A DNA stretch of 64,000 nucleotides from an uncultured bacterium (GTDB lineage: Bacteria; Hydrothermota; UBA3072). The notes under the pieces were generated by a model. It had not been told where the DNA came from. It did no database searches and saw only the letters and a program-made list of their open reading frames with translations. The DNA is taken from NCBI GenBank assembly GCA_964523975.1, contig CAZGBM010000001.1:6116-70115 (forward strand), in the 5' to 3' direction. The position numbers and the translations under genes were made by a program. This document shows positions 2,168 to 58,497 of this stretch, one piece after another. Positions within the stretch are counted from its first letter, which is position 1. Each line of letters begins with the position of its first letter.

Positions 2168-2239
2168 AACATTACTTCCGTCATTATATTTTTAACCAGT
2201 AAACTTTTTTAAACATATTACATTTAGTCTCGTTTTTAT

Positions 2240-2505
2240 AGTAAATAAAATATCAAAATTTAAAAAGCAAAATGACAAATAAAAATGCAAAATTATCTTT
2301 AAATCCCCACCCAAAGCAACCCATTTTTTAACAACAAATTGCACAAATTTCACGAATAATTTTTTTTGTTTTTTCAACTCGAAACTCGCAACCCGAAACA
2401 ACAGTTAATATTTGTGTTATTCGTGTGATTCGTTGTTTCTATTTTTAATTCATTTTTGAATTTTAATCTGTCATTTTCCATTTTGATATTTGATTTTTGC
2501 ACTCC
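2240..2505. mobile_element. MITE-like internally deleted copy of the IVS-like element (two inverted arms plus internal modules)
   Basis: Arm 2243-2297 and inverted arm 2447-2502. Only an 11-codon remnant (MENDRLKFKNE...) of the four-helix-bundle ORF remains. The interior carries the shared modules cacccattttttaacaacaaattgcacaaatttcac and attcgtgtgattcgttgtttct. Confidence 0.55.
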
Positions 2506-3558: not shown

Positions 3559-3595
3559 AGATATTTAAACAATTGACTTAATTCCATAGAATATG

Positions 3596-3815
3596 AAATA
3601 TTAAAAATTAAAAAGCAAAATGACAAATTAAAATGCAAAAACTAAAAATAAAAGGACGCAGTTGCTCGCAGATAAAAAAAGATTTTTGATTTGTTACTTT
3701 TCCCAAGAACCAACTACTAACTAATAATATATGATTCGTTATTTCTTTGCTTTTTGAATCATTTTTGAATTTTGATTTGTATTTTTCCATTTTGATATTT
3801 GATTTTTACATTTTT
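3596..3815. mobile_element. MITE-like internally deleted copy of the IVS-like element
   Basis: Arm 3596-3650 and inverted arm 3752-3812. The internal 60-aa ORF (3608-3790, minus) starts MEKYKSKFKN like the intact gene and then degenerates. Confidence 0.55.
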
Positions 3816-3879
3816 ACGGATTTGTATTTCCAAGCTGTTTATTTATTACTGCTTGACCCTTCTTTAAATAGCTCAAACT

Positions 3880-13142: not shown

Positions 13143-13189
13143 ACAATTTAGTATATTCTTTTTACTCCTTTGAGCAAGGGGGATGAAGA

Positions 13190-13400
13190 AAATCAAATAT
13201 CAAAAATCAAAATGACAAATAAAAATGTAAAATTATAAATCAAAACAAAAAAAGAGAAACAACGAATCACACAAATAGCACGAATAAAAACAAAAAAATT
13301 CTATTTTTTGTAAAAAATAACTATCGTTAATTCATTTGTGTAATTTGTGCTATTTGTTGTTAAAATAGGGGATGTTGGGGGATAAACAGAGAAATCTTTG
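13190..13400. repeat. Solo arm plus internal modules of the IVS-like repeat family
   Basis: Arm at 13190-13250; agaaacaacgaatcacacaaatagcacgaat and gtgtaatttgtgctatttgttgttaaaatagggg modules match the element at 2240-2505 in reverse orientation. Confidence 0.55.
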
Positions 13401-14481: not shown

Positions 14482-14699
14482 ATAACCTCCTGCTTTACAG
14501 TATTACCAATCAACTTTTTGTTCTTTTGCAAAAAAATATCTCATTTAGTTCTACCTTCCTTTCACGGTAAATAAAATATCAAAATTTAAAAAGCAAAATG
14601 ACAAATGAAAATGCAAAATTATCTCCTACCTTTCAGCGTTAAAACACTTGAAGCAAAAATTTTACTGATTTCATCCAATTCTCTTAAGAACCAACCAAC

Positions 14700-14990
14700 T
14701 TATTCTGGCATGGCTCTTTTAATATCTCCAAGCAGATTAATCCATAGTTTACTTTCATTAGTAGATTTAAGAGAATAATTGAAATAATTTGTAAAATCTC
14801 TCTTACTGCTTGCAGATTGACCTTCAACATAATTACCTAAGATACTTGTACCACTGCAAAGCAATTGATCTCCAAGTCTTTTAGACACATTATCTTTAGG
14901 TAAACCATCTAAAAACTCAATAAGCTTCAGGACAAAGTTGTACAACCTTTTTTTGTATTCATTTTTGAACTTTGATTTGTCATTTTCCAT
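14700..14990 (-). CDS. Four-helix-bundle protein (23S rRNA intervening-sequence protein family)
   Basis: 96 aa; family-typical length and composition; its start codon and first ~11 codons lie inside the dispersed 'arm' repeat. Confidence 0.65.
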   Translation of the reverse strand: MENDKSKFKNEYKKRLYNFVLKLIEFLDGLPKDNVSKRLGDQLLCSGTSILGNYVEGQSASSKRDFTNYFNYSLKSTNESKLWINLLGDIKRAMPE

Positions 14991-15035
14991 TTTGATATTT
15001 AATCTTTACATTTTAGCGGCTTTGCCACTTTATCA

Positions 15036-15064
15036 AATATATTTCTCTAAAACCGCTTGTCAAG
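15036..15064 (-). promoter_or_regulatory. Sigma70-type promoter (TTGACA-17-TATATT) for the four-helix-bundle gene
   Basis: Minus-strand reading cTTGACAagcggttttagagaaatATATTTgat, followed by the gcggcaaagccgc hairpin and the arm containing the ATG. Confidence 0.45.
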
Positions 15065-15073
15065 TGAAGTCGA

Positions 15074-17788: not shown

Positions 17789-18096
17789 TTTTTTAACCCA
17801 CCTTTTATGTTTTTTACGTTATAAAAAAATAAACTATCCGATTATATTTTAATTTTTTTATTATAACAACGAATAATATTATAGCAAGAGAAAAAATTCT
17901 TTTTACTAGCCTGAGAATTTTAACCACAAAGTTATCAAAGAACCATAAAATGATAATGGTAAAGTGAGATATCAGATACCGGGTACCGGATACCAGAAAT
18001 TAGTTAGAAGGTTATCGGTCAATATATCAGTAAATCAGTGAATCGGTAAATTAGTAATAAAAAACAGCTACAGTATCTACATGTCCTACATGTAAA

Positions 18097-18335
18097 AATG
18101 GTGTGTGGGTTGGATTTTAAACCGCAAAATATCCTGTTTATCTTGTTAATCCCGTCTGATTGATTCTTCGAATCGGTTAAATAGTTGAATTGTCGAATGG
18201 TTGAATAGTAGCAACAAAAATTTTTTTATCCGTGACCATCCGTGTTAATCCGTGGCTAATTTCGGGGTTGTGGGTTGGGTTTTAAAGAACAAAAAATCTT
18301 GTGTTAATCTTGTGAAATCTCGTGATTAATTTTCC
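18097..18335. repeat. G-rich modular repeat region in the divergent intergenic region (two blocks)
   Basis: gtgtgtgggttggattttaaaccgcaaaatatcctgtttatcttgttaatcc and ccgtgttaatccgtggctaa...ggttgtgggttgggttttaaagaacaaaaaatcttgtgttaatcttgtg. Confidence 0.55.
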
Positions 18336-18337
18336 CC

Positions 18338-18365
18338 TTGACATCATACAAATATCATATATAAT
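18338..18365 (+). promoter_or_regulatory. Sigma70-type promoter TTGACA-16-TATAAT upstream of the RHH/PIN pair
   Basis: ccTTGACAtcatacaaatatcataTATAATatt; GGAGG at 18387-18391; TTG start at 18398. Confidence 0.5.
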
Positions 18366-18397: not shown

Positions 18398-18637
18398 TTG
18401 AAGAGTCAGGCTGTAAATATTTCGTTTAAAAAGGATTTACTAAAGAAGATTGATGACATCGCTAAAGAAGAATCCCGTACCAGGTCTGAACTGGTACGTG
18501 AAGCGGCAAGAATTTACATTGAGAGAAAGGAGGAATGGAGTAAGATTTTTTCTTACGGGGATATTCTTACTCGAGAAAAGCAACTCTCCGAAGAAGACTT
18601 GAAGAAAGAAATAGAAACTTACAGAAAAGAGAAGTAA
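18398..18637 (+). CDS. Ribbon-helix-helix (CopG/VapB-like) antitoxin, TTG start
   Basis: 79 aa; N-terminal RHH pattern (SFKKDLLKKIDDIAKEESRTRSELVREAARIYI); 1-nt gap to the PIN gene. Confidence 0.7.
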   Translation: MKSQAVNISFKKDLLKKIDDIAKEESRTRSELVREAARIYIERKEEWSKIFSYGDILTREKQLSEEDLKKEIETYRKEK

Positions 18638-18638
18638 T

Positions 18639-19043
18639 TTGTTCAAAGTTGTTTTTGACACCAATGTTTTAATTTCCGCCATTCTATTTGGTGGTTATCC
18701 CAGAAAATGTTTCGAGCTTGTAATTGAAGGGAAAATAGAATTATATATTTCCGAAGAAATCATAGGTGAATTTGAGGGAGTTTTAAAACGAGAAAAATTT
18801 GGCGTCGCCAAAGAAAATTTGCATTATATAGTTTCTTCTCTTAATTCATTTGCAAATTTCGTAAAACCTGAAACAAAATTAAATATAGTAAAAAAAGACC
18901 CCGAAGACAATAAATTTGTTGAATGTGCAATAGCAGCAGAAGCTGATTTTATCATATCCGGAGATACTCATTTGCTCGAGCTTTCCAAAATTCGAAAAAT
19001 AAAGATATTAAATCCAGCCGATTTTTTAAAGCATTATTTTTAA
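18639..19043 (+). CDS. PIN-domain toxin (VapC-like)
   Basis: 134 aa; VVFDTNVLISAILFGG...CAIAAEADFIISGDTHLL, acidic residues characteristic of the PIN fold. Confidence 0.75.
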   Translation: MFKVVFDTNVLISAILFGGYPRKCFELVIEGKIELYISEEIIGEFEGVLKREKFGVAKENLHYIVSSLNSFANFVKPETKLNIVKKDPEDNKFVECAIAAEADFIISGDTHLLELSKIRKIKILNPADFLKHYF

Positions 19044-19049
19044 CTAAAG

Positions 19050-19262
19050 TGATTTTAGATGTTAGGAAGTTAGGAGGCTAAAACAGAAAATAAAAGATTG
19101 GGCTTAGTTGAGCTTTGTGCTCTCTGTGCCTCCGCGGTTATGAGAATTTTTTTTATTAGTGTGTATCCGTGTTAATCCGTGGCTAACTCAGTGGTTTTGG
19201 GTTGGGTTTCGAATAACAAGAAAATCCTTTTTAATCTGCGTCTATCTGTGTACGATTCTTTT
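19050..19262. repeat. G-rich modular repeat region
   Basis: gttaggaagttaggagg, ctttgtgctctctgtgcctccgcgg and gtgtatccgtgttaatccgtggctaactcagtggttttgggttgggtttcgaataacaag modules shared with other loci. Confidence 0.55.
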
Positions 19263-19265
19263 TAA

Positions 19266-19338
19266 ATTTTGCATTTTTATTTGTCATTTTGCTTTTTGAT
19301 ATTTGATTTTTACTTTTAAGCGGCTTTGCCGCTTATCT
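19266..19338. repeat. Solo arm of the IVS-like family plus GC hairpin aagcggctttgccgctt
   Basis: tttgtcattttgctttttgatatttgatttttac then a 7-bp stem/3-nt loop hairpin whose 3' end overlaps the TAA stop of the 782-aa gene. Confidence 0.55.
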
Positions 19339-21681
19339 GCTCTCAACAAATCTCACAATTGATGCCGTAAAAATGAGTAATATGACAAACATAAGAAGAG
19401 GGTAATATAAATAAATCCTTAAAGATAAACAGACGAGTAGAACTACAGTCACAATCGCAAGAAGTCCACCGGGTCTTAAAGCAAGTTTGAACCATTTCGA
19501 TAACTTAACAAGCTCCTTCCATAGAGCCTCGAACAGAGGAATAAAAATCCGTCTCTTACGGATAAACACATAAATCAAAATCAAAACCAGTAGAATAACC
19601 AGAGCTTTTATTATTAAATCATTCACATAATTGAAGCCTAAAAATAAAGCTTCTTCTCTTTCTACAATCTTTTTCTCAAAAGAATACTTATTACCGGAAA
19701 CCGGAATATTGACTCTGACGGACAGTACCCCGGCTTCTCCTGTAGCGAATACCTTTGCCGATTTATCGAGTATTGCTTGAGGCATTGAAGGTGCAAGAAT
19801 TTCTTTTGTTGCCGAAATTCCTCTCATTTCTTCATCCTTAGCCTCCTCTTCAAAACCTTCTGTTTCCGTAGGCATAGCAGTCGGCATAACAACAGGAATA
19901 ATTTCTTCAATCTTCGGTTTGAGATTACCACTAAATTTCATATAAGTATAATCTACAGGCAAATATAGACTCCACTCGGCTTTGTTGATTAGAATATCCG
20001 TAGTCGGGAAGCAATGCTTCTTCTTACCCAATAGATTAAAACCTCCCATTTTTTCGGTGTAAATAAGTTCGATATCAAAAGGCGTAAGACTTCCATCCCC
20101 TCCCCTTTCCGAGCGGACAAGCGGAATCAGCACTTTACCATCATCATCTTTAGAAGCCTTTTCTCTTTTGCCGTTAACATAAACACTCCAGATACTCACG
20201 TCTTGCGGTAAACTTACCTTCAGGAACTGGTCCCACAGATTTTGCATCGTAAAGGTAACCTGATAAACCAGTTTGCCGTCTTCCGTAAGGAGGGTAATTC
20301 CCTTCGCCAAATCGATAAAAGAAGTAAGAGCCTCTTCTTTTTTGTATTTGGTAATACGAACAACCATACCAAAGGGATGTTTTACATATCTGAAAGCGAA
20401 AAGAATCGGTCTGGCAGAAAGATTGCTGAGCTGGTAAGGAATCTTCTGAAAATCAATTCTTTCAAGGTTATTAAATTCCTGAACTTCAGCTCCGGCATCG
20501 CTTTTTACTTCTCCCGCCACATACCCAGATTCTCTCACTGCTCCCAGAACTTCAAACCCTTCGAAATCCGCAATTATCGTTTCTTCCGGCAATAATTTTT
20601 CCGATTTTACAGTCACCACCTTCGTTCCTTCAAACATATATTCGAAAGACACATCAAGAAGCTGCCTTCCTTTTTCCTCCCTGCTACTCCACCCCGATAC
20701 CCCATCGCCGCTTACCTCGATAACCTGATAACCCTCAGGAACGATAAGCGAAAGCAAATTGATTTTATTCTGCATTACGTTCAACTCGACCATCGTGGTA
20801 ACGGTAATCGCGTCTGCCTCAATAGAAAGAAGATTGAAAACCTCAGAGTATATCCTGGCCGAACCTCTCACCACTTTCCCTTCCTCTTTCTTCCAGGAAA
20901 TACTTACATAAGAAGCAGGAGAAAGATAGCTTCTTATGACGGTATGGCCTTTTGTCTCTACGGTTTTCACTTCCTGGGCATTCCCGATATTAACCTCAAG
21001 ATAGGGCTTGGGGATATCAAGAGAAAGGTAAGTAATCGGTGTTTGTGGAATACTGAAATTCAAACCCGGACTCCCATTATCCGGCGACGAATTAAGGGAA
21101 AACTTTATACCGACCGAATGCCGACCAACCTCACTGGTAGACAAATAATGCCACCCTCCCTCGGTTATTATAGAAGCAGGCTTTCCGTCAAGTTTAACTT
21201 CCGATATAGCAAGATTTTCCCCGAAAAGAGGAATCTTCAAATAAGATTTCTGATGTTTATCGAAAATCTCCAGGTCGAGGAAAACGGTAAAATTCGTACT
21301 CTGACTTCCCATAACACCATTGTACGACGCTCTCGTAATAATATAATCCGCGGGAGGCTTAAGCTCCCCTCCCACGGGAGCTATCATCCTATCCACGAGT
21401 TTTTTAAATTCCTCTCTCGTAAGTACCACTTCCCCACCCTCGACCCTGTACTCGGGCTGGTAAGTGGCTCCTGTCTGTTCCATCAGTTTAGCGAACTCAT
21501 CCCAGGAAAGTTTTATCTCATCAACGTCAAGTTTCAAAAGAGAACGGAATTCATTCCAATCTATTGTTACTTTTGAATCCTTCGAATCATCAGCACGAAG
21601 GGCGAACCCAAAAGAGGTGCATAACAGAATCAAAGATAAGCTAATTAAAAAAATATGATTTCCTGTTCTTTTCTTTGTCAT
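19333..21681 (-). CDS. Large secreted protein with C-terminal triple-TM anchor, paralog A, function unknown
   Basis: 782 aa; signal peptide, duplicated (I/L)SW(D/E)EF..L motifs near the N-terminus, three C-terminal TM helices; paralogous to the upstream gene. Confidence 0.6.
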   Translation of the reverse strand: MTKKRTGNHIFLISLSLILLCTSFGFALRADDSKDSKVTIDWNEFRSLLKLDVDEIKLSWDEFAKLMEQTGATYQPEYRVEGGEVVLTREEFKKLVDRMIAPVGGELKPPADYIITRASYNGVMGSQSTNFTVFLDLEIFDKHQKSYLKIPLFGENLAISEVKLDGKPASIITEGGWHYLSTSEVGRHSVGIKFSLNSSPDNGSPGLNFSIPQTPITYLSLDIPKPYLEVNIGNAQEVKTVETKGHTVIRSYLSPASYVSISWKKEEGKVVRGSARIYSEVFNLLSIEADAITVTTMVELNVMQNKINLLSLIVPEGYQVIEVSGDGVSGWSSREEKGRQLLDVSFEYMFEGTKVVTVKSEKLLPEETIIADFEGFEVLGAVRESGYVAGEVKSDAGAEVQEFNNLERIDFQKIPYQLSNLSARPILFAFRYVKHPFGMVVRITKYKKEEALTSFIDLAKGITLLTEDGKLVYQVTFTMQNLWDQFLKVSLPQDVSIWSVYVNGKREKASKDDDGKVLIPLVRSERGGDGSLTPFDIELIYTEKMGGFNLLGKKKHCFPTTDILINKAEWSLYLPVDYTYMKFSGNLKPKIEEIIPVVMPTAMPTETEGFEEEAKDEEMRGISATKEILAPSMPQAILDKSAKVFATGEAGVLSVRVNIPVSGNKYSFEKKIVEREEALFLGFNYVNDLIIKALVILLVLILIYVFIRKRRIFIPLFEALWKELVKLSKWFKLALRPGGLLAIVTVVLLVCLSLRIYLYYPLLMFVILLIFTASIVRFVESR

Positions 21682-21691
21682 TTTGATGCTC

Positions 21692-24187
21692 CTATTTCGC
21701 CCTTGGGTTTTTTGTTTTTTTTGTTTTCTTCTTTCTCCTGGCTGGAGATTTAACCTTCCGTGCGGGTATCAAGTCGGGTCTTATCCAGGCAATCAAAAAG
21801 ACGAGAACAAAAATAACAAAAAGAAATTTCGAAAGGAAGAAGAAAATGAATGCCCCCAGAACGAGGAGACTCTTTATGCCGGCAGGAGTCTTTAATCTCA
21901 TCCAGAAGTCTTTATTGGAATAAAGACGATTTTTAAATTCAAGAAAGAGGACTCTTATTTTAATTCTAAGACGATAAATAAGGTAAAGAACGATAAGAAC
22001 TATAAGAATCTTGATTAAAGAATAAATCCATCCTCTGGTATATTGAAAAGTCAAGAACAACTGTTCATCTTCTATCACGGTTTTCGCAAAACGGTAAAGT
22101 TGTCCCGAGGTAGGAACTTCAATCTTAAAGAGAGCTACACTGGTTACTCCGCTTTCCCTGTCTCTTTTTAGATTTTCCGCAAAGCCGATTTCCTGCCTGA
22201 CCTGGTTCAAGAAATCAGCCTGCTCATTAGCCGAACTCAACCTGAAATTGCTCTTTAACTTACTCTGTGTTTGTTGTATTTTTTTATCTTCGATTTGCTT
22301 CGGCTCTTCCCAACTTTGAAGAGCTTGTTCGTATCCGCGAACCTCCTCATAGGTAAAAACTCTGCTTCCTCCGAACAAAGGACGAATCCCGGTGGCGATG
22401 TCTTCTTTTTCGACATTTCCTCCGAAATGGACGTAACGATATTCTAATGGCAGGTAACAGGACCATAGCATCTTACTTATCACTACATCAGCCTTGGGAA
22501 ACAATATAGTTTTCGAGCCGACAAGCGGCAATGAATTTTCCTTGTAATAAAAGAGAAATTCGACATCAAAGGATTCTATACTTTCACCCGATAAGCCTGA
22601 ACGGACAAGAGGTATCATAAATTTTCCTTCGTTGTTTTTGGAAGGAATTTCTCTTTTGCCATCAACATAAAGACTCCATATCTCAGCATCGGCGGGCAAG
22701 CTCAACTCCAGAAATTGCTTACCGGTATTACGCATAGTGTAAATAACCCTGCTTATAACCTTACCTTCCGGAAGTAAAACCGACATAACACTGGCATTAT
22801 CAATAACGGTATTGACCATTGGAAGTTCTTCGTGCTTCGTAACTTTCAAAGTCAGCGAGAACGGATGTCTTAAATATCGCAGTCCCAGGATTAAAGGCCT
22901 CGTGGACATATTCACCAGATCTAAAGGCAATTCCTGTATATCAACAACATCGATGTCTTTATTCCCGACAATCTCTGCTTCAGCCGCACTTTTCTTTTCG
23001 ATTCCGACAAAACCGGTTTCCCTGACGGACCCGAGAACTTCAAAACCATTGAAGTCTATCTCGTTACTCTTTTCCGTAAAGATCTTTTCAACTACTACAG
23101 TAAATACTACTGTACCTTCTTTTTCTCCTCCGAAAGGAACGGTTAAAACTTCTTTACCTTCAACTTCTTCCGTACTCCAGTCTCTTATTTCTTCGTAGTT
23201 TTGTCCCCTAACATATAAAACGCTATAGCCACGAGGAACAGATACTTTAATACCGGAAATCGAATTTTGCAGGACATCAAGTTTGAATCTTGCAGTAACC
23301 TGCAAAGCATTGTCCAGAACGGAAAGCAAATTCATAACCTCCGTATAAATTTTTGCGGGAACTTTCTTCTTCTCTTTCACGATAGTCCGGTGAACCTTTA
23401 AGGAAATATAAGAGGTTGTTGAAAGAACCGACCTGACACTTATATAGCCACCCCTGTTCAAAACGGTAATATATTTAGCCTCCGGTATCTCAACTTTGGC
23501 GTCAGGCACGGGAATATCAATATTAAATAACGTAATTGCGGTTTGTGGAATAGTAATACTCAAAACATCAGGACCTTTATCAAGTTCAGTTTTGACGGAG
23601 AATGAGAGCGTTACCTTATGCCGACCCAGTTTATCTGTTGCAAGGACATACCAGCCGTTTTCAGCCATCACTAAAGCAGGGTTACCATCTAACTCGATAT
23701 TTCTGAGCGCTACTCCCTGCGGTATAAGCTTAATCTTCGGATAATCTGTTCTACCTGTTTTGAATATTTCCAGGTCAAATGTGACGTTGAATGTGGTACT
23801 ATTCTGCTCCATAACACCGTTATATTCAGCTCTGGTTATAATATAATCACCTGGAGGAATAACCGGAGAAATATCCGGCTTCTTCATTTTATCAAGCAAT
23901 TCTTTAAACTGCTCCCTGCTCAAAACCACCATACCATTTTGTATACTGTATTCTATCTTGACCTCACTGCCGGTCTGTGCCAAAAGTTTTTTAAACTCAT
24001 CCCAGGAAAGCTTAATCTCGTCTGCGTCAATCTTTAAAAGTTCTTTGAATTCTTCCCAGCTTATTCTTACTTCGCTCGATTCTTTCTTGGGTTCAGCTTC
24101 CTCAGCATAAAGAGGTAACGCCGATAAGAGAGAAAAAAACAACAGAAAAACAGATGCAACATTTGTTAAACTCCTGAACTTTATCAT
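21692..24187 (-). CDS. Large secreted protein with C-terminal TM anchor and basic tail, paralog B, function unknown
   Basis: 831 aa; same architecture; shared blocks include ISWEEFKELLKIDADEIKLSWDEF, PLVRS...FD(I/V)E(L/F), YLP(V/L)(D/E)Y.Y. Lys/Arg-rich cytoplasmic tail. Confidence 0.6.
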   Translation of the reverse strand: MIKFRSLTNVASVFLLFFSLLSALPLYAEEAEPKKESSEVRISWEEFKELLKIDADEIKLSWDEFKKLLAQTGSEVKIEYSIQNGMVVLSREQFKELLDKMKKPDISPVIPPGDYIITRAEYNGVMEQNSTTFNVTFDLEIFKTGRTDYPKIKLIPQGVALRNIELDGNPALVMAENGWYVLATDKLGRHKVTLSFSVKTELDKGPDVLSITIPQTAITLFNIDIPVPDAKVEIPEAKYITVLNRGGYISVRSVLSTTSYISLKVHRTIVKEKKKVPAKIYTEVMNLLSVLDNALQVTARFKLDVLQNSISGIKVSVPRGYSVLYVRGQNYEEIRDWSTEEVEGKEVLTVPFGGEKEGTVVFTVVVEKIFTEKSNEIDFNGFEVLGSVRETGFVGIEKKSAAEAEIVGNKDIDVVDIQELPLDLVNMSTRPLILGLRYLRHPFSLTLKVTKHEELPMVNTVIDNASVMSVLLPEGKVISRVIYTMRNTGKQFLELSLPADAEIWSLYVDGKREIPSKNNEGKFMIPLVRSGLSGESIESFDVEFLFYYKENSLPLVGSKTILFPKADVVISKMLWSCYLPLEYRYVHFGGNVEKEDIATGIRPLFGGSRVFTYEEVRGYEQALQSWEEPKQIEDKKIQQTQSKLKSNFRLSSANEQADFLNQVRQEIGFAENLKRDRESGVTSVALFKIEVPTSGQLYRFAKTVIEDEQLFLTFQYTRGWIYSLIKILIVLIVLYLIYRLRIKIRVLFLEFKNRLYSNKDFWMRLKTPAGIKSLLVLGAFIFFFLSKFLFVIFVLVFLIAWIRPDLIPARKVKSPARRKKKTKKTKNPRAK

Positions 24188-24295: not shown

Positions 24296-24480
24296 TAGCA
24301 CGTTATGTCAAGAAGTTAAAAGTCGCCCCCCCGCTTACCGCTTACGGCTAACAGCAGGAAAAAAATCACATGTAGGAAATGTAGGGATTTTATTTTTTGT
24401 TTTTAAGCAACACAATAAATCTTTTTTTAATCCGTGTTTATCTGTGTTCATCCGTGGCTATTTCCTTTTTATCTATTCGT
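24296..24480. repeat. Composite repeat region (modules shared with both repeat families)
   Basis: taatccgtgtttatctgtgttcatccgtggcta. The block ttcgtgctattcgcctacctcataaggaagaatgactgtatcggggtg matches 56340-56390. acatgtaggaaatgtaggg matches 18070-18095 in reverse complement. Confidence 0.5.
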
Positions 24481-24788
24481 GCTATTCGCCTACCTCATAA
24501 GGAAGAATGACTGTATCGGGGTGTGTTAAACATAGCTCTTTGCCTTTAGACTTTGGCTCTTGGCCGAAAAAATAAATAAAAAATTTAGTGTATTTTGTTT
24601 GTTTAAAGCAAAAACCACAAATCTTTAGAAAAACAACAGAATTTTAAAAATAATCATCTATCTTCTCCTCGGAATGACCAAAAACACTCTTAATGCCCCT
24701 CATTGAGCCAGCAGCAAGGTACATAAGTTCATCTATAAAATAATTGTTATTTCTAAAAGCTAAAGGCAAAAAGCTAAAAGCTATTTAA

Positions 24789-31490: not shown

Positions 31491-31756
31491 GTTATTAGTG
31501 AGTGGGTGAGTTGGTTAAAAAACGGACCAACCGACCCACAGGCCAACGATTTAAAATCTCTTTGTCCTCTGTGTCTCTGTGTGAAAATAATTGGGTGTTG
31601 TGTGGAGGGTTTTTTAACAACAATAATGTTTTTTCTTTGTGTTCTTTGCGGCTTTGTGTGAGAATAACTTGGGGTGGTGGGTTGGGTTTTAAACAACAAA
31701 ATATCTTTTTGTTTTTTCTCTGCGGCCTTTGCGCCTCTGCGGTGAAATATTTTTTT
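31491..31756. repeat. G-rich modular tandem repeat (about 2.5 units of ~80 bp)
   Basis: Units of ctttgtgt(c/t)ctctgtgtgagaataa plus ttggggtggtgggttgggttttaaacaacaaaata. Confidence 0.6.
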
Positions 31757-32340: not shown

Positions 32341-35300
32341 ATGAAAATTTTATGTAAGAAAGAGGTGATATTTCTTTTCTTTTTCGCATTAATTGCCTCA
32401 GCCGGCGTCATACAAAAAGAATTAACTTTTGATAAAAACGACATTTCTTTTGCCAAAATTGACAAGTACGACTTTATAAGATTAAAAGGATGCGAGTCGA
32501 CTGTAGAGACAGGGGCTCCTTCTCTTCCGAGAGCATCTTTTTCTCTTTTAATTCCTCAGGGTGCGGAGGTTATAGATGTTGAGGTTATTTCCGTCGATAA
32601 AGAAGTAATTAGCGGAGAATATGATATTTATCCAACTCAACATCCTCAGCCTTTCATAAAAGGTAAAGTCTTCCCATTTGTTGAACCTGACAAGAATATT
32701 TACACTCAGGCTACCCCATATCCCGAAAAAATTATCGAGTCTTCTCACACCGGCTCAATGAGCGGCTATAGACTTGCAAGTTTACTGATTTATCCAATAC
32801 AATATATACCTAAAGATAAGCAGTTGATTTTCTATTCGAGAATAAAGTTCAGGGTTACATACAAAGAGAACGTACGTTCGTTGAATACGAAAACAGAGAA
32901 ACAAAAAATGATATTTGAAGAAAGAGTCAAAAAATTAGTCCTCAATCCCGAAGATATCGGAATGTCCGAGCCTTCCGTCGGACTTAGCGGAAGTCTGGCA
33001 TTACTTTCGGATACGGTGGAATATGTGATAGTAACCACATCTTCGCTCAAAGAACCTTTCCAGGAACTTGCGGACTGGAAAACGAAGAAAGGGATTCCTG
33101 CGAGGGTTGTAACTCTTGATTCCATCTATGCGAATTATTCAGGTGTAGATAATGCCGAAAAGGTAAGGAATTTCATAATCGATGCTAATTCATCCTGGGG
33201 AACAATCTGGGTTCTTCTCGGCGGGCAATGCGACTATGAATGGGGACAGGAAATCGTTCCGAGAAGGAATGTCTGGTATGTAACCTCAGGTGGTGGAAAT
33301 TATAACGATGAAGATACCATTCCATCGGACCTTTATTTCTCCGACCTTGACGGGAACTGGAATGCGGACGGAGATGGTGTATTTGGTGAATCAACCGACG
33401 ACGTTGACTTCTATTCGGACGTGTTCGTGGGAAGAGCTCCTGTTCGAACTTTAGCTCAGGCAGAAATTTTTGTTAATAAGGTTCTCACTTACGAAAAAAA
33501 TCCTCCCAGTGGTTATCAAAAAAAGATACTTCTGCCTGCAGCCTATCTATGGCCATTTATATACGATGAGAGGACCTCACAGGAGGCAATTTCCAATATA
33601 GTTCCTTCGGACTGGCAGGTTACAAAGATGTACGAGCGGGACGGAAATTTAATCCACTCGACTTTTGTTGATTCGGTTCGCGCGGGATTCGGGTTCGCTC
33701 ATCTCATAGGACACGGCAACGAGTATGGTGTTTATACTTATTACGCCGATGCTTATATTAATTCCGATGACATGGATGCTCTTGGTAATGGCGATTTGCT
33801 TGGTATTCATAACTCTATAGCCTGTATGTCCGGCGGGCTTGACCTTGTGCCTGACGGAGACTGCTTTGCAGAACATTATCTGACTCCAAGTACAGGCGGA
33901 AGTTTCTCCATTATGAATTCAAGGTATGGCTGGGGACAACCCCCAAATATGGGACCTTCGGAGCATATCGACACCTGTTTCTACCATGAAATATTCAGAG
34001 AAAATTATCTTTATCATGACCATATTGGTGTAGCACACGCCTTTTCGAAAGACGGCTACGTACCTCAAGTTACCTGGTCATCTCTCTGGCCGTGGTGCAT
34101 TTATGAGTTAAATCTATTCGGAGACCCGGAAATGCCTTTATGGACGGATACTCCTGCTAAATTAACCGTAACTCATGACTTCGTAATACCCGTTGGCGGC
34201 AGCAGCTTTGCTGTGAATGTTACAGATGGTGGCTCAGGTGTAGAAGACGCGCTTGTTTGTTTATATAAAGAGGGAGAAGTATATGAAAGAGGATACACCG
34301 ATGCTTCAGGTAATCTTACCTTAACTCTATCTCCGCCTCCCGCTTCTCTCGGTTTAATGTGCTGTACGGTTACAAAAAGCAATTACCTTCCCTACGAAGA
34401 TAGTGTGGATGTTATTTCTCCTTTTGGTCCCTGGGTTATTTTTGATAGTTATTCAGTATTGGACATATCCGGAAATAATGATGGCAATGTTGACCCAGGA
34501 GAGAATATTAAGTTGTGGCTGATAGTACATAATGTAGGTCTTGATACTGCTTATAGTATCACGGGTATTTTGCGAACGACTGATTCTTATGTCATCATTG
34601 CTGACTCAATGGAAGGATTCGGAGATATCCCGCCCGATTCATTCTTGAGCAGCTTAGAGGACTTTGACTTTGATGTGGCACTGGAATGTCCGGCAAACCA
34701 TGTTATTACTTTTGAGCTCGTTGTTAGAGATATAAACGATAGTACCTGGGTTAGTTGTTTTTCTGTGCCTATATCAACGCCAGATATAACCGTTTCTGCC
34801 GACACCATAATTTTCGATACAGTATTTGTAGATTATTCTGATACATTGGAACTTCTGGTAAATAATATTGGTAGAGATACCTTAGTTATAAGTGATATTA
34901 CATCTGACAATATCGATTATTCCATTGATATTACTGGCTTTAATTTACCCCCAAATGAAAGTCAACCAGTAAGGGTGATATTTGCTCCGGCTTCTGAAGG
35001 TAGCTCCACTGGTAATCTGACTGTTGCGAGTAACGATTTAGATGAACCCAGCTTAACAGTCTTCTTACGGGGAGAAGGTTTAGAGCCGCCTGATATATCT
35101 TTTTCACCCGATTCCGTGAGTGATAGTTTATTTGCAGGTGAAACGACTACCCATACTTTAACGATTTATAACACGGGAGAAAGTGAACTTAATTTTGATA
35201 TATCGATTATGGAATTACTATCAACAACAAAAGCACCAAATATAAGTTTTAAAGTCACCGAATTCAAAAGCAATAAAATAGCAATACCTGACGAGAATTC

Positions 35301-38300
35301 GGGAACGGTAAATGAGTTTGGAGCGAAATTTTCCAAGCGGATTTACAAGAGTAGCGCGCCTACTTTAGCTTTAGAAAATATACTTGTTATGGAAAATGGT
35401 CCGGGTTCATATCATTATAATACAGCTCTGGATAATCTTGGACTATCAAGGACACTTGTAACTTACTGGGACGAATTGCATATGGAACTCAACAGTGGAA
35501 CCCAGTGGGAGCTGGTTATTGTTAATTCCTATAGCAATATACCTTCGAACGAAATACTTGATTTGCTCAATGATTATCAAGCAGAAGGTGGACTTTTAAT
35601 ATATGCCGATTGGGCTCTTTACAACTATTCTTCGCACTCTTTACTTACAAGTTTAGGTATCGGTTTCGTTTCGGATTTTACAACGCCTTTAAACTTCTAT
35701 GCCGTCAATACCGGGCATGTACTTTTTAATAATCCGAATGATATAGACAGTCTATACTGGACAGATAACCAGTATAACAGAGATGCTGAGATTGTTGACG
35801 TTCTTCCTGGTGCGACTCAACTGGCTTATCTCGAAGGTTATCCTGACAATGGAGCAATAGTGCTTAATGCGAGAAAGAACTGTCTGTTCAATGCTTTTCA
35901 GTCAATGAACTTTAACGTAGATGATGATGGCGATGAAAAACTCGACATTGTTGAACTTATAGAGAATGAGATTAGGTTCCTTTCGATGCGCTGGCTTTCG
36001 GTTGATCCATTCTCTGGCACCATTCCATCAGCCGATAGTGTACTTGTAGAAATTACATTTGACGCTACCAACCTTTATGGAGGGAACTACTTTGCAGATA
36101 TTATCATTACCAGTAATGACCCGGATGAGCCGAGAGTTAGGGTTCCTGCTCATTTGCATGTAACTGGGGTGCCTGATATTTCTGTTTCGGAAGACACCTT
36201 AAATTACGGTATTGTTTTCACTGGTTATTCTGCAACTGACACATTAATTATTGAAAATGTCGGGACCGATTCACTGAGTGTTAATGACATCTCGTCTGAT
36301 AATCCTGATTTTACTGTAGATGTAACTAATTTTACCTTGGACCCCGGAAAAACGCATGGTATTGTGGTAACCTTTACGCCCGGCTCACTGGGAATGGTTA
36401 CGGGAACCTTGACCATCGATTGCGATGATCCGGATGAGCCAACTATAGATATTGCCTTACAGGGGGAATGTTTAGAACCACCGGACATATCGGTTTCGCC
36501 TGATTCTTTGAGAGATAGTCTGTTTACGGGCGAGACTTCAACCCATACTTTAACTATTTATAATACTGGCTTAAGTGAACTGATTTTTGATATTTTGATT
36601 GAAGGAGAGGGCGAGGCGGAACCTCTGGTATCTCTGAATACAAGAATGTCTATAGAGGACAAGAAGATAAATACTACGGGACCTCAAAAAAGTATAAGCG
36701 GTGAAACTGCTGCCGTAAATCAGTCAAATAGTCCTGTTCAATTATACAAATCTTCAAAAACAAGGGGAACGCAGGATATCGCGATACTTGGACCGGATGG
36801 CTCCGACAGTAATTTATATCTTGATGATATAGCTCGGTATTTGATAAACTCGGGGCAATTTTCTTCAGTAACAACTATAAATGGATACCTGGTTACCCCT
36901 ACCTTAGCTGAACTGAAAACATTTGATGCAGTAGGTGCCTTTGGTTGGTATGGCTGGAATGACGCAGTTGCTGTTGGTGATATACTGGCGGATTATGTTG
37001 ATGCAGGAGGTAATCTTTTTATTGCCTTTGCAGCAAATGGAACCGGAGGCGATTGGATGATTGAAGGTCGGTTTGATACTGAAAATTATTGGTTGATTTC
37101 TCCATATTCTTATAATGGAGGAACTTCCTATCATATGGGTAACGTTTATGAACCAGATCATCCCATTATGGATGGGGTAAGTACGTTAATTTCAAGATCA
37201 AAATTGAACAGCGGAACTTCTGTTAGTCCCGGCACAACTTTACTGGCGGAGTTCCTAGATGGAACACCGCTTGCCGCTATTAATAAAGTAGGATATAGCC
37301 GACGTGTTGATATAAGTTTTCCGTTTTTCACCTCCGCTGTAAGTAATTGGGGAATAGATACGACCTCGGACACAAAACTGTTGATAATCAATGCACTTGA
37401 TTGGGTTATGGGTTCTGACTGGCTTTCCGAAAATCCCACCACAGACACTGTTCCCCCAGGTGATAGCGTAAAGATAGAAATAACTTTTGACGCAACTGGC
37501 CTATACGGTGGTGATTATTTTTCAAACATCATTATTGCCAGTAACGACCCGGACGAGCCGGGAGTTGTTGTTCCCGCTCACTTACATGTAACAGGAGTGC
37601 CCGATATAGATGTTTCAGAAGATACTTTAGATTACGGTATTGTTTTCGCTGGTTCTTCTGTTACCGATACGTTAATCATTTCAAATAAAGGAACCGATAC
37701 GCTAACAATAAGTAATATTGCAACTGATTACTATAATTTTATTATTGATACTACAAATTTTACCTTAAATCCCAAAGAATCTCAGAAAGTTCTGATAACA
37801 TTTACACCAATCTCACTGGGAACGATTATAAGAGTCTTAAGGATTTATTGCGATGACCCGGATGAATCAACTGTAACATTATTTCTGCGAGGGGAATGCT
37901 TAGAACCACCGGATATATCGGTTTCGCCTAATTCTTTGAATGATACTCTATCCGAAGGTGAAATATCCAGACATATTTTGGCGATTTATAATACAGGTGC
38001 AAGTGATTTGAATTTTAACATTACGATTGAGAAATCGGATTCATCTGGGGTAAAATCGGCAAAAAATAGCAAACAGCCTATAGCCTTATCTTCCTCTGTT
38101 ATTCGTGAGTCTTCTATATTAAGCCTCGAAGAGACGGCCGAACATACACCTTTTGATTTCCACAGTACTCCTCGTCAATTTGCTCCACCAATGATATTTA
38201 GAGATAATTTTGAAGATGGCAATTATGACGGCTGGCTTAGCGGAGAAGGCTCAGGTACAAAGGAAGTTACGAATTCTACAGCCGCTAATGGAACAGTATA

Positions 38301-39237
38301 TAGTTACCATGAGTACAATTCTCCGGACGGATACCATTTCAGCGGAATTTATCGCCAACTTGGCGCTGTACAACCTGGTTATATTAGTTTTTATATCCGT
38401 TCCGGGTCTACTACTACACATGATGCCTATTTTGTACTACAAAATAGCACTGGTTATGACGCAATCTGGTTTTTCGCAAAAGGAGGCGGATATCTTTATG
38501 TCAATTCAAATGTTGGTGGAGACGAAACGTATGCATATACCGCCGAAACATGGTATCATATCGAGTTTAAAAATATTGATTTCATTACAAAAACTTTTGA
38601 CTACTATGTCAATGAAAACATGGTAAAGGCAAGTATTCCCTTCCGAGATGCTCAGTATATTGAAGACTTTGACCATCTGGATATTTACAATTTTAGCGGT
38701 GGTTCGCAGGCTTGGTGGGATGAGATTTTAATTTTGACAGGAGAGTTCCCTACCTGGGTCGTGGTTGATACCCTTTCGGGTACAATTTCATCAGGTGACA
38801 GTGTTAATATAGAGGTTACTTTTGATGCGACAGGTTTAGACATCGGCTATTATTTCGCAGAAATCATTATTGAAAGTAACGATCCGGATAATCTCCAAGT
38901 AATTGTTCCAGCTCATTTGCATGTACTTGGCAGCGGGATAGAAGAAAGGGCGATTCCGAAAGTCTTCTCTATTTCTCAAAACTATCCTAACCCATTCAAT
39001 CGCCAAACAACGATAATGTACGGATGCCCGAAAAGTTCCAAAGTTGAGATTCGAATTTTCGACATTACGGGAAGGTTGGTAGCAACTCTTGTGAATAGAG
39101 AAGTCGAAGCCGGATATCACGAAGTAATCTGGAACGGATGCACCGATTCCGGCAATAAAGTTGTAGGTGGTATATATTTCTATAAAATGAAGACAAGTGA
39201 CTTTATGGCAACTAAGAAGATGATTCTTTTACGGTAA
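32341..39237 (+). CDS. Giant (2298 aa) secreted gingipain-like C25 cysteine peptidase with ThuA-like, choice-of-anchor-D/ASH-like and LamG-like domains and a T9SS C-terminal sorting domain
   Basis: Signal peptide; C25 propeptide; catalytic His (GHGNEYG) and Cys (NSIACMSGG) about 37 aa apart. Two flavodoxin/ThuA-like segments. At least four repeats ending ...DPDEP..VPAHLHVTG and three CLEPPDISVSPDSL...IYNTG repeats. Concanavalin-like region. C-terminus NYPNPFN...IFDITGRLV...GIYFYKM matches the Por/T9SS CTD. Confidence 0.8.
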   Translation: MKILCKKEVIFLFFFALIASAGVIQKELTFDKNDISFAKIDKYDFIRLKGCESTVETGAPSLPRASFSLLIPQGAEVIDVEVISVDKEVISGEYDIYPTQHPQPFIKGKVFPFVEPDKNIYTQATPYPEKIIESSHTGSMSGYRLASLLIYPIQYIPKDKQLIFYSRIKFRVTYKENVRSLNTKTEKQKMIFEERVKKLVLNPEDIGMSEPSVGLSGSLALLSDTVEYVIVTTSSLKEPFQELADWKTKKGIPARVVTLDSIYANYSGVDNAEKVRNFIIDANSSWGTIWVLLGGQCDYEWGQEIVPRRNVWYVTSGGGNYNDEDTIPSDLYFSDLDGNWNADGDGVFGESTDDVDFYSDVFVGRAPVRTLAQAEIFVNKVLTYEKNPPSGYQKKILLPAAYLWPFIYDERTSQEAISNIVPSDWQVTKMYERDGNLIHSTFVDSVRAGFGFAHLIGHGNEYGVYTYYADAYINSDDMDALGNGDLLGIHNSIACMSGGLDLVPDGDCFAEHYLTPSTGGSFSIMNSRYGWGQPPNMGPSEHIDTCFYHEIFRENYLYHDHIGVAHAFSKDGYVPQVTWSSLWPWCIYELNLFGDPEMPLWTDTPAKLTVTHDFVIPVGGSSFAVNVTDGGSGVEDALVCLYKEGEVYERGYTDASGNLTLTLSPPPASLGLMCCTVTKSNYLPYEDSVDVISPFGPWVIFDSYSVLDISGNNDGNVDPGENIKLWLIVHNVGLDTAYSITGILRTTDSYVIIADSMEGFGDIPPDSFLSSLEDFDFDVALECPANHVITFELVVRDINDSTWVSCFSVPISTPDITVSADTIIFDTVFVDYSDTLELLVNNIGRDTLVISDITSDNIDYSIDITGFNLPPNESQPVRVIFAPASEGSSTGNLTVASNDLDEPSLTVFLRGEGLEPPDISFSPDSVSDSLFAGETTTHTLTIYNTGESELNFDISIMELLSTTKAPNISFKVTEFKSNKIAIPDENSGTVNEFGAKFSKRIYKSSAPTLALENILVMENGPGSYHYNTALDNLGLSRTLVTYWDELHMELNSGTQWELVIVNSYSNIPSNEILDLLNDYQAEGGLLIYADWALYNYSSHSLLTSLGIGFVSDFTTPLNFYAVNTGHVLFNNPNDIDSLYWTDNQYNRDAEIVDVLPGATQLAYLEGYPDNGAIVLNARKNCLFNAFQSMNFNVDDDGDEKLDIVELIENEIRFLSMRWLSVDPFSGTIPSADSVLVEITFDATNLYGGNYFADIIITSNDPDEPRVRVPAHLHVTGVPDISVSEDTLNYGIVFTGYSATDTLIIENVGTDSLSVNDISSDNPDFTVDVTNFTLDPGKTHGIVVTFTPGSLGMVTGTLTIDCDDPDEPTIDIALQGECLEPPDISVSPDSLRDSLFTGETSTHTLTIYNTGLSELIFDILIEGEGEAEPLVSLNTRMSIEDKKINTTGPQKSISGETAAVNQSNSPVQLYKSSKTRGTQDIAILGPDGSDSNLYLDDIARYLINSGQFSSVTTINGYLVTPTLAELKTFDAVGAFGWYGWNDAVAVGDILADYVDAGGNLFIAFAANGTGGDWMIEGRFDTENYWLISPYSYNGGTSYHMGNVYEPDHPIMDGVSTLISRSKLNSGTSVSPGTTLLAEFLDGTPLAAINKVGYSRRVDISFPFFTSAVSNWGIDTTSDTKLLIINALDWVMGSDWLSENPTTDTVPPGDSVKIEITFDATGLYGGDYFSNIIIASNDPDEPGVVVPAHLHVTGVPDIDVSEDTLDYGIVFAGSSVTDTLIISNKGTDTLTISNIATDYYNFIIDTTNFTLNPKESQKVLITFTPISLGTIIRVLRIYCDDPDESTVTLFLRGECLEPPDISVSPNSLNDTLSEGEISRHILAIYNTGASDLNFNITIEKSDSSGVKSAKNSKQPIALSSSVIRESSILSLEETAEHTPFDFHSTPRQFAPPMIFRDNFEDGNYDGWLSGEGSGTKEVTNSTAANGTVYSYHEYNSPDGYHFSGIYRQLGAVQPGYISFYIRSGSTTTHDAYFVLQNSTGYDAIWFFAKGGGYLYVNSNVGGDETYAYTAETWYHIEFKNIDFITKTFDYYVNENMVKASIPFRDAQYIEDFDHLDIYNFSGGSQAWWDEILILTGEFPTWVVVDTLSGTISSGDSVNIEVTFDATGLDIGYYFAEIIIESNDPDNLQVIVPAHLHVLGSGIEERAIPKVFSISQNYPNPFNRQTTIMYGCPKSSKVEIRIFDITGRLVATLVNREVEAGYHEVIWNGCTDSGNKVVGGIYFYKMKTSDFMATKKMILLR

Positions 39238-50689: not shown

Positions 50690-51036
50690 TAAAAATAACA
50701 AATTAGCTGTCAGGCTTTGTGTCTTTGCGTGATGAAAATTTTTGGGTGGTGGTATGGGCTTTAAACTAAAAATATATTGTGCTCTTTGTGTGCTCTGTGT
50801 GAGATAAATTTGGTGCGGTGGGTCGGGTTTTAAACAACAATATAATTTTTTTTCTCTGTGTGTTTTTTGTTTTCTCTGTGTCCTCTGTGGTAATTATTTT
50901 AGTTAGGATATTAGAAAGTTAGGTGGTCGGGAAGTTAGAACAAACATAATATAAGGGTTGCGTGGAAGGGCTTTGTGTTCTTTGTGTCTTTGTGTGAGAA
51001 TATTTTTGTTGTTTTAGGGTTGTGGGTGGTTCTCCC
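50690..51036. repeat. G-rich modular tandem repeat (3-4 diverged units)
   Basis: Repeated ctttgtg(t/c)(c/t)tctgtgtgaga(t)aa plus ttgg(g)tg(c/g)g(t)ggg(t)(c/t)gggttttaaacaacaa(t)ata units, with an inserted gttaggaagttagg-like module. Confidence 0.6.
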
Positions 51037-56292: not shown

Positions 56293-56415
56293 TCATTTAG
56301 TCTGTTGGCCTGTAGAAAAACTACACCAATAAATTTTGATTCGTGTTATTCGCCTGCCCCGTAAAGAAGAATGAGTGTATCGGGGTGCAATTCGTTGTTT
56401 CTTCGTTTCTTTGAA

Positions 56416-56488
56416 TTCCTTTTTGGATTCTGATATATCATTTTACATTTTGATATTTGATTTTTACTTTCTAGCGGCTCTGCCGCTT
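56416..56488. repeat. Solo arm plus hairpin of the IVS-like family
   Basis: ttttggattctgatatatcattttacattttgatatttgatttttac followed by tagcggctctgccgctta. Confidence 0.55.
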
Positions 56489-56842: not shown

Positions 56843-56911
56843 GTAGTATAAATGAATGAAAAAGCTAATCCCTATAATTCTATTTATCCTCTTCTGCACC
56901 TCTATTTTTTA

Positions 56912-56968
56912 AATTCATTTTTGAACTTTGATTTGTAATTTTACATTTTGCTATTTGATTTTTAAATT
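56912..56968. repeat. Solo arm of the IVS-like family
   Basis: ttcatttttgaactttgatttgtaattttacattttgctatttgatttttaaatttcag. Confidence 0.5.
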
Positions 56969-57083
56969 TCAGAAGTTTCCCTCTATCCAATTATAAATTG
57001 CTAATAAACGGTCGTGAATATGTAGAGTAGTATAAACTTATATTGTATTGACTTATAACCTCAATTTAATTATTATAGTATAT

Positions 57084-58289: not shown

Positions 58290-58497
58290 TGTTGTTTTTC
58301 ACCACACCACCCATTTTTTAACAACAAATTGCACAAATTTCACAAATAAATTTGAGAATAGTCAGTATCTGTTTTTTAAATATTCGTGCTATTCGTGTTA
58401 TTTGTTGTTTCTCTTTTTTTTAATTCCTTTTTGAATTTTGATTTGTAATTTTGCATTTTGCTATTTGATTTTTGAATTTCAGTGGCTTTGCCGTGCT
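58290..58497. repeat. Internal modules plus solo arm plus imperfect hairpin of the IVS-like family
   Basis: caccacaccacccattttttaacaacaaattgcacaaatttcac...attcgtgctattcgtgttatttgttgtttct...ttgaattttgatttgtaattttgcattttgctatttgatttttg...cagtggctttgccgtgctg. Confidence 0.55.

Follow-up and report, generated by a model that had tools for sequence, protein, structure and literature searches.

A broken four-helix-bundle gene between inverted heptamer-repeat arms: a candidate free-standing intervening-sequence-type cassette

A four-helix-bundle gene and its inverted arms

The stretch analyzed here (the "window") is 64,000 nt (64 kb) of AT-rich DNA from an uncultured Hydrothermota bacterium (contig CAZGBM010000001.1), and at 14700-14990 on its minus strand lies a small four-helix-bundle gene enclosed by two long inverted arms. 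Its neighbors, identified by domain search, encode a TMEM260-like glycosyltransferase, a zinc-ribbon protein and a hydrolase. An earlier reading of the letters (the original prediction) had reported a 96-aa four-helix-bundle open reading frame (ORF) at this position, in the architecture of the ORF-bearing intervening sequences (IVSs) of ribosomal RNA (rRNA) yet between protein-coding genes. The family assignment was confirmed, as the ORF matched PF05635 with E = 5e-13 (49.5 bits, curated cut-off 33.8) and TIGR02436 with E = 1.5e-15 (57.3 bits, cut-off 24). The IVS-like architecture outside rRNA also held up, given the same protein family, conserved arms and a predicted enclosing stem.

The gene, however, is not complete as first thought. 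Both profile matches span only positions 3-83 of 106-109, the first three quarters of the profile, and the complete four-helix domain (~110-125 aa), intact in relatives, is not present in the ORF, which begins at ATG 14990-14988 and stops after 96 aa at the in-frame TAA 14700-14702. Database homologues are nearly all 123 aa long and end in ...SSILTLKGKK. Beyond TAA 14700-14702 the frame stays in phase, codes for the typical last helix (VGWFLRELDEISKIFASSVLTLKGRR) and stops at TAA 14619-14621, and alignment to the homologues identifies 14619-14699 (minus strand) as the rest of an ancestral 123-codon gene with its original stop. Since the truncated protein was found in identical form in two other metagenome samples, the premature stop reflects a nonsense mutation and not a sequencing error. 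Judged by its sequence, the window gene is a 123-codon four-helix-bundle gene broken by one nonsense mutation, and now either a pseudogene or a gene for a truncated protein. A full-length homologue (P0004) matched PDB entry 2RLD with E = 6e-13, a structure with five chains.

The long inverted arms said to bracket the ORF were found, with coordinates adjusted to 14568-14621 and 14963-15013, both read on the minus strand. The 5' arm (14963-15013), defined by repeat search, duplex prediction and autocorrelation, comprises an A-rich leader (-23 to -1), the ATG and the first 9 codons, rather than the ~11 codons counted originally, and forms a degenerate array of ~7 heptamers. In most related loci it likewise spans -23 to +28 relative to the ATG. 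The 3' arm (14568-14621), defined by repeat search and duplex prediction, complements the 5' arm in inverted orientation, is rich in U when read on the sense strand and begins at the true stop codon. Repeat search aligned 14574-14618 with 14963-15007 as an ungapped inverted pair of 45 nt with 78% complementarity, and the RNA duplex of 14963-15013 with 14568-14621 is predicted to contain 40 pairs when a 7-nt bulge is allowed. In the minimum-energy fold of 14555-15035 (minus strand) the arms were paired (z = -3.6 compared to shuffled sequences), in agreement with the stem that had been proposed to form around the ORF in the transcript.

Just 5' of the upstream arm, sequence reading placed the anticipated GC hairpin at 15015-15029 (minus strand; AGUGG-CAAAG-CCGCU on the sense strand). 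This hairpin also precedes the 5' arm in WOR-3-type copies from several contexts, and it stands beside solo arms elsewhere in the window, near 19312-19326, 56470-56484 and 58476-58490. Further upstream is a sigma-70-like promoter (15036-15063, minus strand) that matches 11 of 12 consensus positions. Its hexamers are those named in the original prediction, TTGACA and TATATT, but they are separated by 16 nt and not 17. The promoter-like site is kept in the orthologous locus L028. At the other end, a tail at 14507-14567 (minus strand) was found only in close, WOR-3-type copies, whose homology extends to ~14507 with an identity of ~61%. This tail was considered as an outward promoter and dropped, as its best hexamers are 20 nt apart and it was absent from the promoter-scan output.

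The unit and its settings in other genomes

The comparison drew on over 200 related loci, with three sets among them. The set for the window's own subfamily holds 56 loci from a genome scan with one full-length homologue as query, a second and separate set holds 67 metagenomic loci of another PF05635 clade (query, a six-sequence alignment of four-helix-bundle proteins), and a third holds six distant PF05635 members on plasmids of cultured bacteria. The 56 subfamily loci share 50-100% amino-acid identity and come from at least 10 phyla, with WOR-3, Planctomycetota, Ignavibacteria/Chlorobi, Bacteroidota, Gemmatimonadota, Gammaproteobacteria, Dehalococcoidia, Microgenomates/Levyibacteria, KSB1 and Thermodesulfovibrionales among the groups represented.

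Where a match spans the unit, its blastn similarity to the window is bounded by 15007-15013 on one side and by 14567-14574 on the other, the outer ends of the arms, and homology beyond them (to 15026 and ~14507) occurs only in the closest copies. Because the limits of homology coincide with the outer arm ends, the conserved unit is read as the arms plus the ORF, ~445 bp. The arms themselves are well conserved: among seven independent contexts, identity was 90% in the 3' arm and 87% in the 5' leader, compared to 70% at ORF third positions and 61% in the tail, and the synonymous divergence (dS) was 0.64 in the arm-embedded codons 2-10 versus 1.29 in the remaining ORF. Arm identity above that of third positions, together with the halved dS of the arm codons, indicates that the arms are selected as nucleotide sequence. 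The protein is under selection as well. The ratio of nonsynonymous to synonymous divergence (dN/dS) is ~0.05 among cassette copies and dS is often near saturation, which argues that most copies are old and under strong purifying selection; premature stops mark 6-8 of 55 copies as pseudogenes.

Arm pairing was then evaluated across loci. In a 39-locus alignment, 84% of cells were paired in the window's register versus 45-58% when the partner was slid by 1-3 columns, in counts that took the window's own duplex as the structure and are biased towards pairing to that extent. The covariation score was 0.114 versus 0.089 and was reached by none of 500 shuffles, and several arm positions of this alignment show double changes (e.g. 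UA/CG and AU/UA). When the whole unit was folded with its flanks, 37 of 40 loci had at least 20 long-range arm-arm pairs in the minimum-energy fold (median 33), and the median energy of the cognate arm duplex was -32.5 kcal/mol versus -21 kcal/mol for shuffles.

Neighboring genes in the window's subfamily are mostly co-oriented with the four-helix-bundle gene, both upstream (51 of 54 loci) and downstream (48 of 53). The ATG typically follows the upstream stop codon by 21-28 nt, and 40-60 nt separate the stop codon of the ORF from the start of the next gene, so there is usually no room for a promoter of the cassette's own. The cassette thus occupies the space between two genes of a single transcription unit. 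The 56 loci represent at least 30 different gene contexts, with housekeeping genes such as leuC/leuD, plsY and recR as neighbors.

These neighbors bear on whether the gene is an accessory gene of the Avd type, belonging to a diversity-generating retroelement. PF05635 is a family resembling Avd, and the two share a homologous four-helix-bundle fold and a pentameric state (PMC10053308). The cassette, in contrast, has no reverse transcriptase and no template-repeat/variable-repeat pair next to it. It stands alone, between the TMEM260-like, zinc-ribbon and hydrolase genes in the window and between housekeeping genes in the 56 related loci. We consider an Avd-type role very improbable, contradicted at this locus by the adjacent genes.

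Planctomycete leuC-leuD-X-Y operons provided empty and filled versions of the same site. L038 has no insert at the leuC|leuD junction (17-nt spacer), where eight other genomes have one; the leuD|X junction lacks an insert in L039 and is occupied in L038 and L064; and the X|Y junction is filled in L039, L045 and L046. Some leu-operon junctions carry a different four-helix-bundle subfamily with different arms. At the filled leuD|X junction, the last codons and the stop codon of leuD come from the 5' arm, which can thus overlap and replace the end of the upstream gene. With all three junctions variably occupied in L038, L039, L064 and other planctomycetes, this operon looks like a cassette hotspot. 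A second subfamily, with AAATTGG-type arms, lies between recR and a transfer RNA (tRNA) gene in L007 (690-1350) and is absent from L008, which keeps only a solo arm-like array (905-1030) in its place. A search of a viral contig collection returned no close relative of the cassette.

Heptamer arrays in other clades and arm copies in the window

Autocorrelation of both arms in the window's subfamily showed a maximum at lag 7 and another at lags 13-14, and heptamer arms proved to extend well beyond this subfamily. This is one of three points that go further than the original prediction, along with the nonsense mutation in the window copy and the finding that its relatives lie mostly inside operons with no room for a promoter. 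The arm sequences of other four-helix-bundle subfamilies among the fetched loci are unrelated to these, and the two arms are again complementary to each other. In the 67-locus clade, inverted flank complementarity exceeded z = 3 in 48 of 67 loci and z = 5 in 43 of 67, compared to 1 of 54 control ORFs taken from the same loci. Tandem Repeats Finder (TRF) detected arrays with a period of 7, 14 or 21 in 46 upstream and 38 downstream flanks of this clade, versus 0.056 per 150 nt elsewhere in the loci. The arrays have a median length of 4.3-4.4 units, and the downstream array begins a median of 5 nt past the stop codon. More than 15 different units occur, and the upstream and downstream units are reverse-complementary in 22 of 31 loci. 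Many sequences each paired with their own complement amount, on this reading, to covariation at the level of the family, in which complementarity or inverted duplication of one motif is selected and no particular sequence is.

The plasmid-borne members extend this pattern further. All six are flanked by period-7 tandem arrays detected by TRF, and the upstream and downstream units are reverse complements in five, as in Nostoc punctiforme (CAATTCG x4.7 / AATTGCG x4.9), Bernardetia (TTAGTGA / TCACTAA) and Gloeocapsa (ATTTTAG / AAATCTA). The Planktothrix four-helix-bundle gene is flanked by arrays of AATCCCC, which we take to be the STRR1 unit of cyanobacteria. The exception is plasmid pTS1 of Treponema saccharophilum (L081, 1014-1690), in which the arrays are direct, of CTCTCCG type with 7-11 units, and a separate purine-rich array lies further upstream of the gene. 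Several other PF05635 clades sampled thus share the inverted heptamer layout. Among the plasmids of cultured bacteria, four-helix-bundle genes were also seen in defense-like operons (L083, L084, L085), with the gene orders DUF1156 - four-helix bundle - Swt1-family HEPN, helicase - four-helix bundle - N-6 DNA methylase, and helicase - four-helix bundle - large hypothetical protein.

Within the window, the arm sequence occurs 11 times, as originally counted, with seven copies of 5'-arm type and four of 3'-arm type. Shuffled sequences gave no matches to the 45-mer and 0.4 to its 18-mer core. These numbers address the simplest alternative, that an A-rich and a T-rich stretch of low-complexity intergenic DNA happen to match. 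The window is indeed AT-rich and shuffled arms still pair at about -21 kcal/mol, but the absence of 45-mer matches in shuffles, the register-specific pairing, the conservation of the arms across phyla and a layout specific to four-helix-bundle genes refute chance, to which we assign practically no weight.

Two further copies in the window retain both arms. An ORF-less derivative at 2230-2505 (minus strand) has a 5' part at 2442-2501 (87% identity) and a 3' arm at 2230-2298 (90%), with its interior swapped for another inverted-repeat module, and an internally deleted copy at 3577-3824 (minus strand) has a 5' part with ~13 codons at 3751-3824 (88%) and a 3' arm at 3577-3640 (83%). The others are solo arms. 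One at 13174-13238 has its A-rich strand on the plus strand and is followed by a GAAACAACGAAT module. The remaining four are read on the minus strand: 19238-19328, with the GC hairpin, directly behind the stop codon of the gene at 19333-21681 (minus strand); 56392-56482, also with the GC hairpin; 56890-56980, which is degenerate; and 58400-58490, again with the GC hairpin, whose neighboring segment 58309-58353 matches the interior of the 2230-2505 copy at 96% identity. Five ORF-less copies share one common junction to the GAAACAACGAAT module, from which it follows that an ORF-less derivative itself multiplied.

The inner inverted-repeat module (AACAACAAATTGCACAAATTTCACGAATAA ... ATTCGTG..TTGTTTC) is nested in or attached to ORF-less arm copies at 2319-2440, 13240-13370 and 58309-58410, and its 45-nt core is 96% identical between 2319-2363 and 58309-58353. 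A different 49-nt repeat with a CCCCG...CGGGG hairpin, 88% identical between its two copies, lies at 24475-24523 and 56339-56387, where the second copy abuts a solo arm.

Readings of the arms and relation to known elements

The family membership of the gene, the boundaries of the unit, selection on protein and arms, the many contexts, the empty and filled sites and the predicted stem are observations. Pairing in RNA, cutting by RNase III and the way the unit moves are what the following account would add to them. We hold at about even confidence that the locus is a decaying member of a widespread, horizontally spreading family of free-standing IVS-type cassettes that loop their ORF out in an RNA stem. 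Such a cassette would be a ~445-bp unit in which a PF05635 ("S23p/IVS protein") gene is enclosed by two inverted, degenerate arrays of 7-nt repeats. It would lodge between co-directional genes, usually reaching from the upstream stop codon to the downstream ribosome-binding site, and be transcribed with them, and the window copy appears to have its own promoter as well. In the transcript, the A-rich 5' arm with leader, start codon and first 9 codons would pair with the U-rich 3' arm that begins at the stop codon, so that an imperfect stem of ~40 bp loops out the entire ORF and buries its start codon. With the stem, the host RNA may tolerate the insertion, as its flanks are brought together or excision becomes possible, and translation of the enclosed gene may be restricted. 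The mechanism that we infer with the best support is an RNA stem cut by RNase III.

Several results weigh against this account. RNAalifold run on the 39-locus arm alignment returned no consensus helix, and the stem is imperfect, with ~38 Watson-Crick pairs per 50 nt and recurrent G.A and A.A positions. Stem formation alone also leaves the heptamer arrays of ~4-5 units unexplained. Pairing selected in the sense RNA predicts more G.U than A.C among non-Watson-Crick cells, and the counts were 74 versus 33 in the window's subfamily, where they come from related and not independent loci, and 50 versus 50 in the independent clade. As the excess was not reproduced in the second clade, it was not used to choose between RNA and DNA. 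Co-orientation of neighbors in the second clade was 77% and 70%, near the usual genomic background, and co-orientation is therefore treated as weak evidence. No consistent target-site duplication was found on comparing filled and empty leu-operon junctions, and no transposase or other mobilizing enzyme was found next to any copy examined. Finally, no copy was found in rRNA: the window had no Rfam match, rRNA included, and no tRNA, and 20 related loci contained no rRNA, with signal recognition particle (SRP) RNA as their only Rfam match. The original interpretation is supported in part, and its suggestion of a mobile or copy-spreading family gains from the multi-copy arms and from one unit in many unrelated contexts and phyla.

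Some of these results fit a rival in which the arms act on DNA, as terminal inverted repeats or as arrays of double-stranded binding sites for cassette movement or recombination, with RNA pairing as a by-product. Either an enzyme acting in trans or the four-helix-bundle protein could be the factor involved. We consider this explanation possible though unlikely. It would account for homology that stops exactly at the outer arm ends, for empty and filled sites in many contexts, for equal G.U and A.C counts in the second clade, and for ORF-less copies with one deletion junction that multiplied in the manner of miniature inverted-repeat transposable elements (MITEs). To a protein that binds double-stranded DNA, a pair of inverted arrays with a common motif would also amount to one site present twice. 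A DNA-level or protein-binding role is likewise favored by the fairly fixed number of units and by a stem that needs no heptamer period. Against it, no transposase or recombinase is encoded and the immediate neighbors are ordinary genes, no target-site duplication was seen, and the conserved block in close copies reaches past both arms. In addition, dS between WOR-3-group copies is 0.3-2.8 (median 0.83, 42 unsaturated pairs), which speaks against recent bursts of transposition. The arms are also asymmetric between strands relative to the gene, with a purine-rich and C-poor 5' arm in both clades, which favors a single-stranded reading. This asymmetry, the fact that all experiments on such an architecture, those on the Coxiella IVS, concern RNA, and the strong orientation bias of the window's subfamily are the three points that favor RNA.

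The arrays could instead be cis-regulatory sites, to which the four-helix-bundle pentamer would bind, each subunit taking about one heptamer, and so regulate its own gene and, through solo arrays, a regulon. Consistent with this explanation, array length has a median of 4.3-4.4 heptamers, the heptamer differs from clade to clade, and solved homologues are pentameric (2RLD with five chains; a toroidal homopentamer is cited in PMC4990558). The Nostoc and Beggiatoaceae papers, moreover, propose a factor that acts on heptamers beside start codons. As RNA, however, the two arms differ, being complementary, so that one RNA-binding specificity cannot read both. The window's subfamily has ~7 degenerate units per arm and not 5. 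Solo arms in the window hold remnants of the first codons of the ORF, which identifies them as cassette debris and not independent operators. We regard this regulatory role as improbable.

Returning to the IVS-type cassette, the closest described relative is the ORF-bearing IVS of 23S rRNA, found in Leptospira, in helix 45 of Coxiella burnetii and in others, which shares the PF05635/S23p family and the placement of the ORF within a stem of complementary ends. In Coxiella, a 28-bp terminal stem encloses the S23p ORF, GACAGAT heptamer repeats lie ahead of the ATG, and the stem is cleaved by RNase III in vitro (PMC4990558). Heptamers beside the start codon, frequent decay of the ORF and a size of ~430-760 nt are thus further points in common (PMC4990558), and both have translation start signals in or beside the stem, the ATG in the window cassette and a putative Shine-Dalgarno sequence in the Coxiella IVS. 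The two also differ. The window cassette lies between protein-coding genes, whereas an rRNA IVS is defined by its position inside an rRNA helix, and its stem of ~40 pairs is A.U-rich and imperfect compared to 28 nearly perfect pairs in Coxiella. The protein is under purifying selection in most cassettes, while the Coxiella IVS ORF is thought to be unexpressed (PMC4990558).

Correia/NEMIS elements of Neisseria, ERIC and RUP/BOX are small intergenic multi-copy inverted-repeat elements that are co-transcribed and form stems, and the NEMIS stem is an RNase III substrate. The cassette resembles such MITEs in being small and intergenic with terminal inverted repeats, and its ORF-less copies in the window are alike, with inverted repeats that terminate the repeated unit and multiple copies. 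Unlike them, the full-length cassette has a selected gene that is not a transposase, heptamer arms, no target-site duplication seen and a spread across phyla. Free-standing homing-endonuclease genes, which sit between conserved phage genes, and integron cassettes, whose ORFs carry an imperfect inverted repeat (attC) at the 3' end, also consist of one small gene between conserved co-oriented genes with presence/absence polymorphism. The four-helix-bundle cassette, in contrast, has no nuclease or integrase motif, and its inverted repeats flank the ORF rather than forming a single 3' attC.

The cyanobacterial short tandemly repeated repetitive sequences (STRRs) are dispersed intergenic heptamer repeats. 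Comparable arrays include the TAACTGA repeats of Beggiatoaceae, cyanobacteria and Bacteroidetes (PMC4679880) and the TTTTGAA repeats of Nostoc 7120 (bioRxiv 10.1101/2022.06.06.494920). They are tandem 7-nt units in sets of 2-6 that are intergenic and often end at a start codon, and their patchy distribution across phyla was taken to suggest horizontal spread with "no mechanism evident", an "unidentified interacting partner" being postulated (PMC4679880; bioRxiv 10.1101/2022.06.06.494920). The window cassette shares the 7-nt periodicity, the intergenic position and the adjoining start codon. The described arrays are solo and direct, with no four-helix-bundle or S23p gene mentioned (PMC4679880; bioRxiv 10.1101/2022.06.06.494920), whereas the cassettes have inverted pairs around such a gene. 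No link between heptamer repeats and these genes was found in the searchable full text, which excludes most subscription journals, and an earlier description is possible.

A broader and more speculative idea, which we put forward tentatively and think rather unlikely, is that PF05635 pentamers and heptamer arrays form one horizontally mobile system. Each clade would have its own repeat, with about one unit per subunit, and the inverted arrays would be its cis sites. Dispersed heptamers (cyanobacterial STRR, Beggiatoaceae TAACTGA, Bacteroidetes) and ORF-bearing rRNA IVSs would then be its footprints or targets.

The literature on ORF-bearing rRNA IVSs goes back to the early 1990s, and to our knowledge it has not explained where they come from, how they move or what their ORF does. 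A unit with an ORF in a predicted stem that lives outside rRNA, within ordinary operons of at least 10 phyla, would turn the rRNA IVS into one site among others where a general family of cassettes has settled, and would tie the cassette to the long-standing puzzle of intergenic heptamer repeats. The idea lends itself to direct tests, as some cultured organisms carry intact cassettes: Nostoc punctiforme PCC 73102, with gene NPUN_RS35560 on pNPUN02, Planktothrix agardhii NIES-204, Gloeocapsa PCC 7428 and Treponema saccharophilum. For genome annotation, it would account for many short genes labeled "four helix bundle protein" with repeats on either side, and for the remnants that they leave between housekeeping genes.

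Other repeats and genes were also noted in the window. A 93-nt direct repeat, 77% identical between 18218-18310 and 19145-19237, brackets a ribbon-helix-helix (RHH)-PIN toxin-antitoxin pair at ~18398-19043, and each copy consists of period-10 ATCCGTG-type units followed by a G-rich GGGTTGGGTTTTAAA block. The arrangement resembles a small cassette of another kind, also flanked by repeats. A family of G-rich GGTGGGTTGGGTTTTAAACAACAAAA modules, with TTGTG/TCGTG units of 9-11-nt period behind them, is intergenic at 18079-18303, 31574-31710 and 50722-50851, and one of the modules lies directly upstream of a TTGACA-17-TATAAT promoter at ~18335-18365. The adjacent ~800-aa genes at 19333-21681 and 21692-24187 are paralogous, with stretches of 73-76% identical DNA offset by ~2.5 kb. 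A 2298-aa ORF at 32341-39237 contains internal repeats of ~1.4 kb (35064-38930) and probably encodes a repetitive surface protein.

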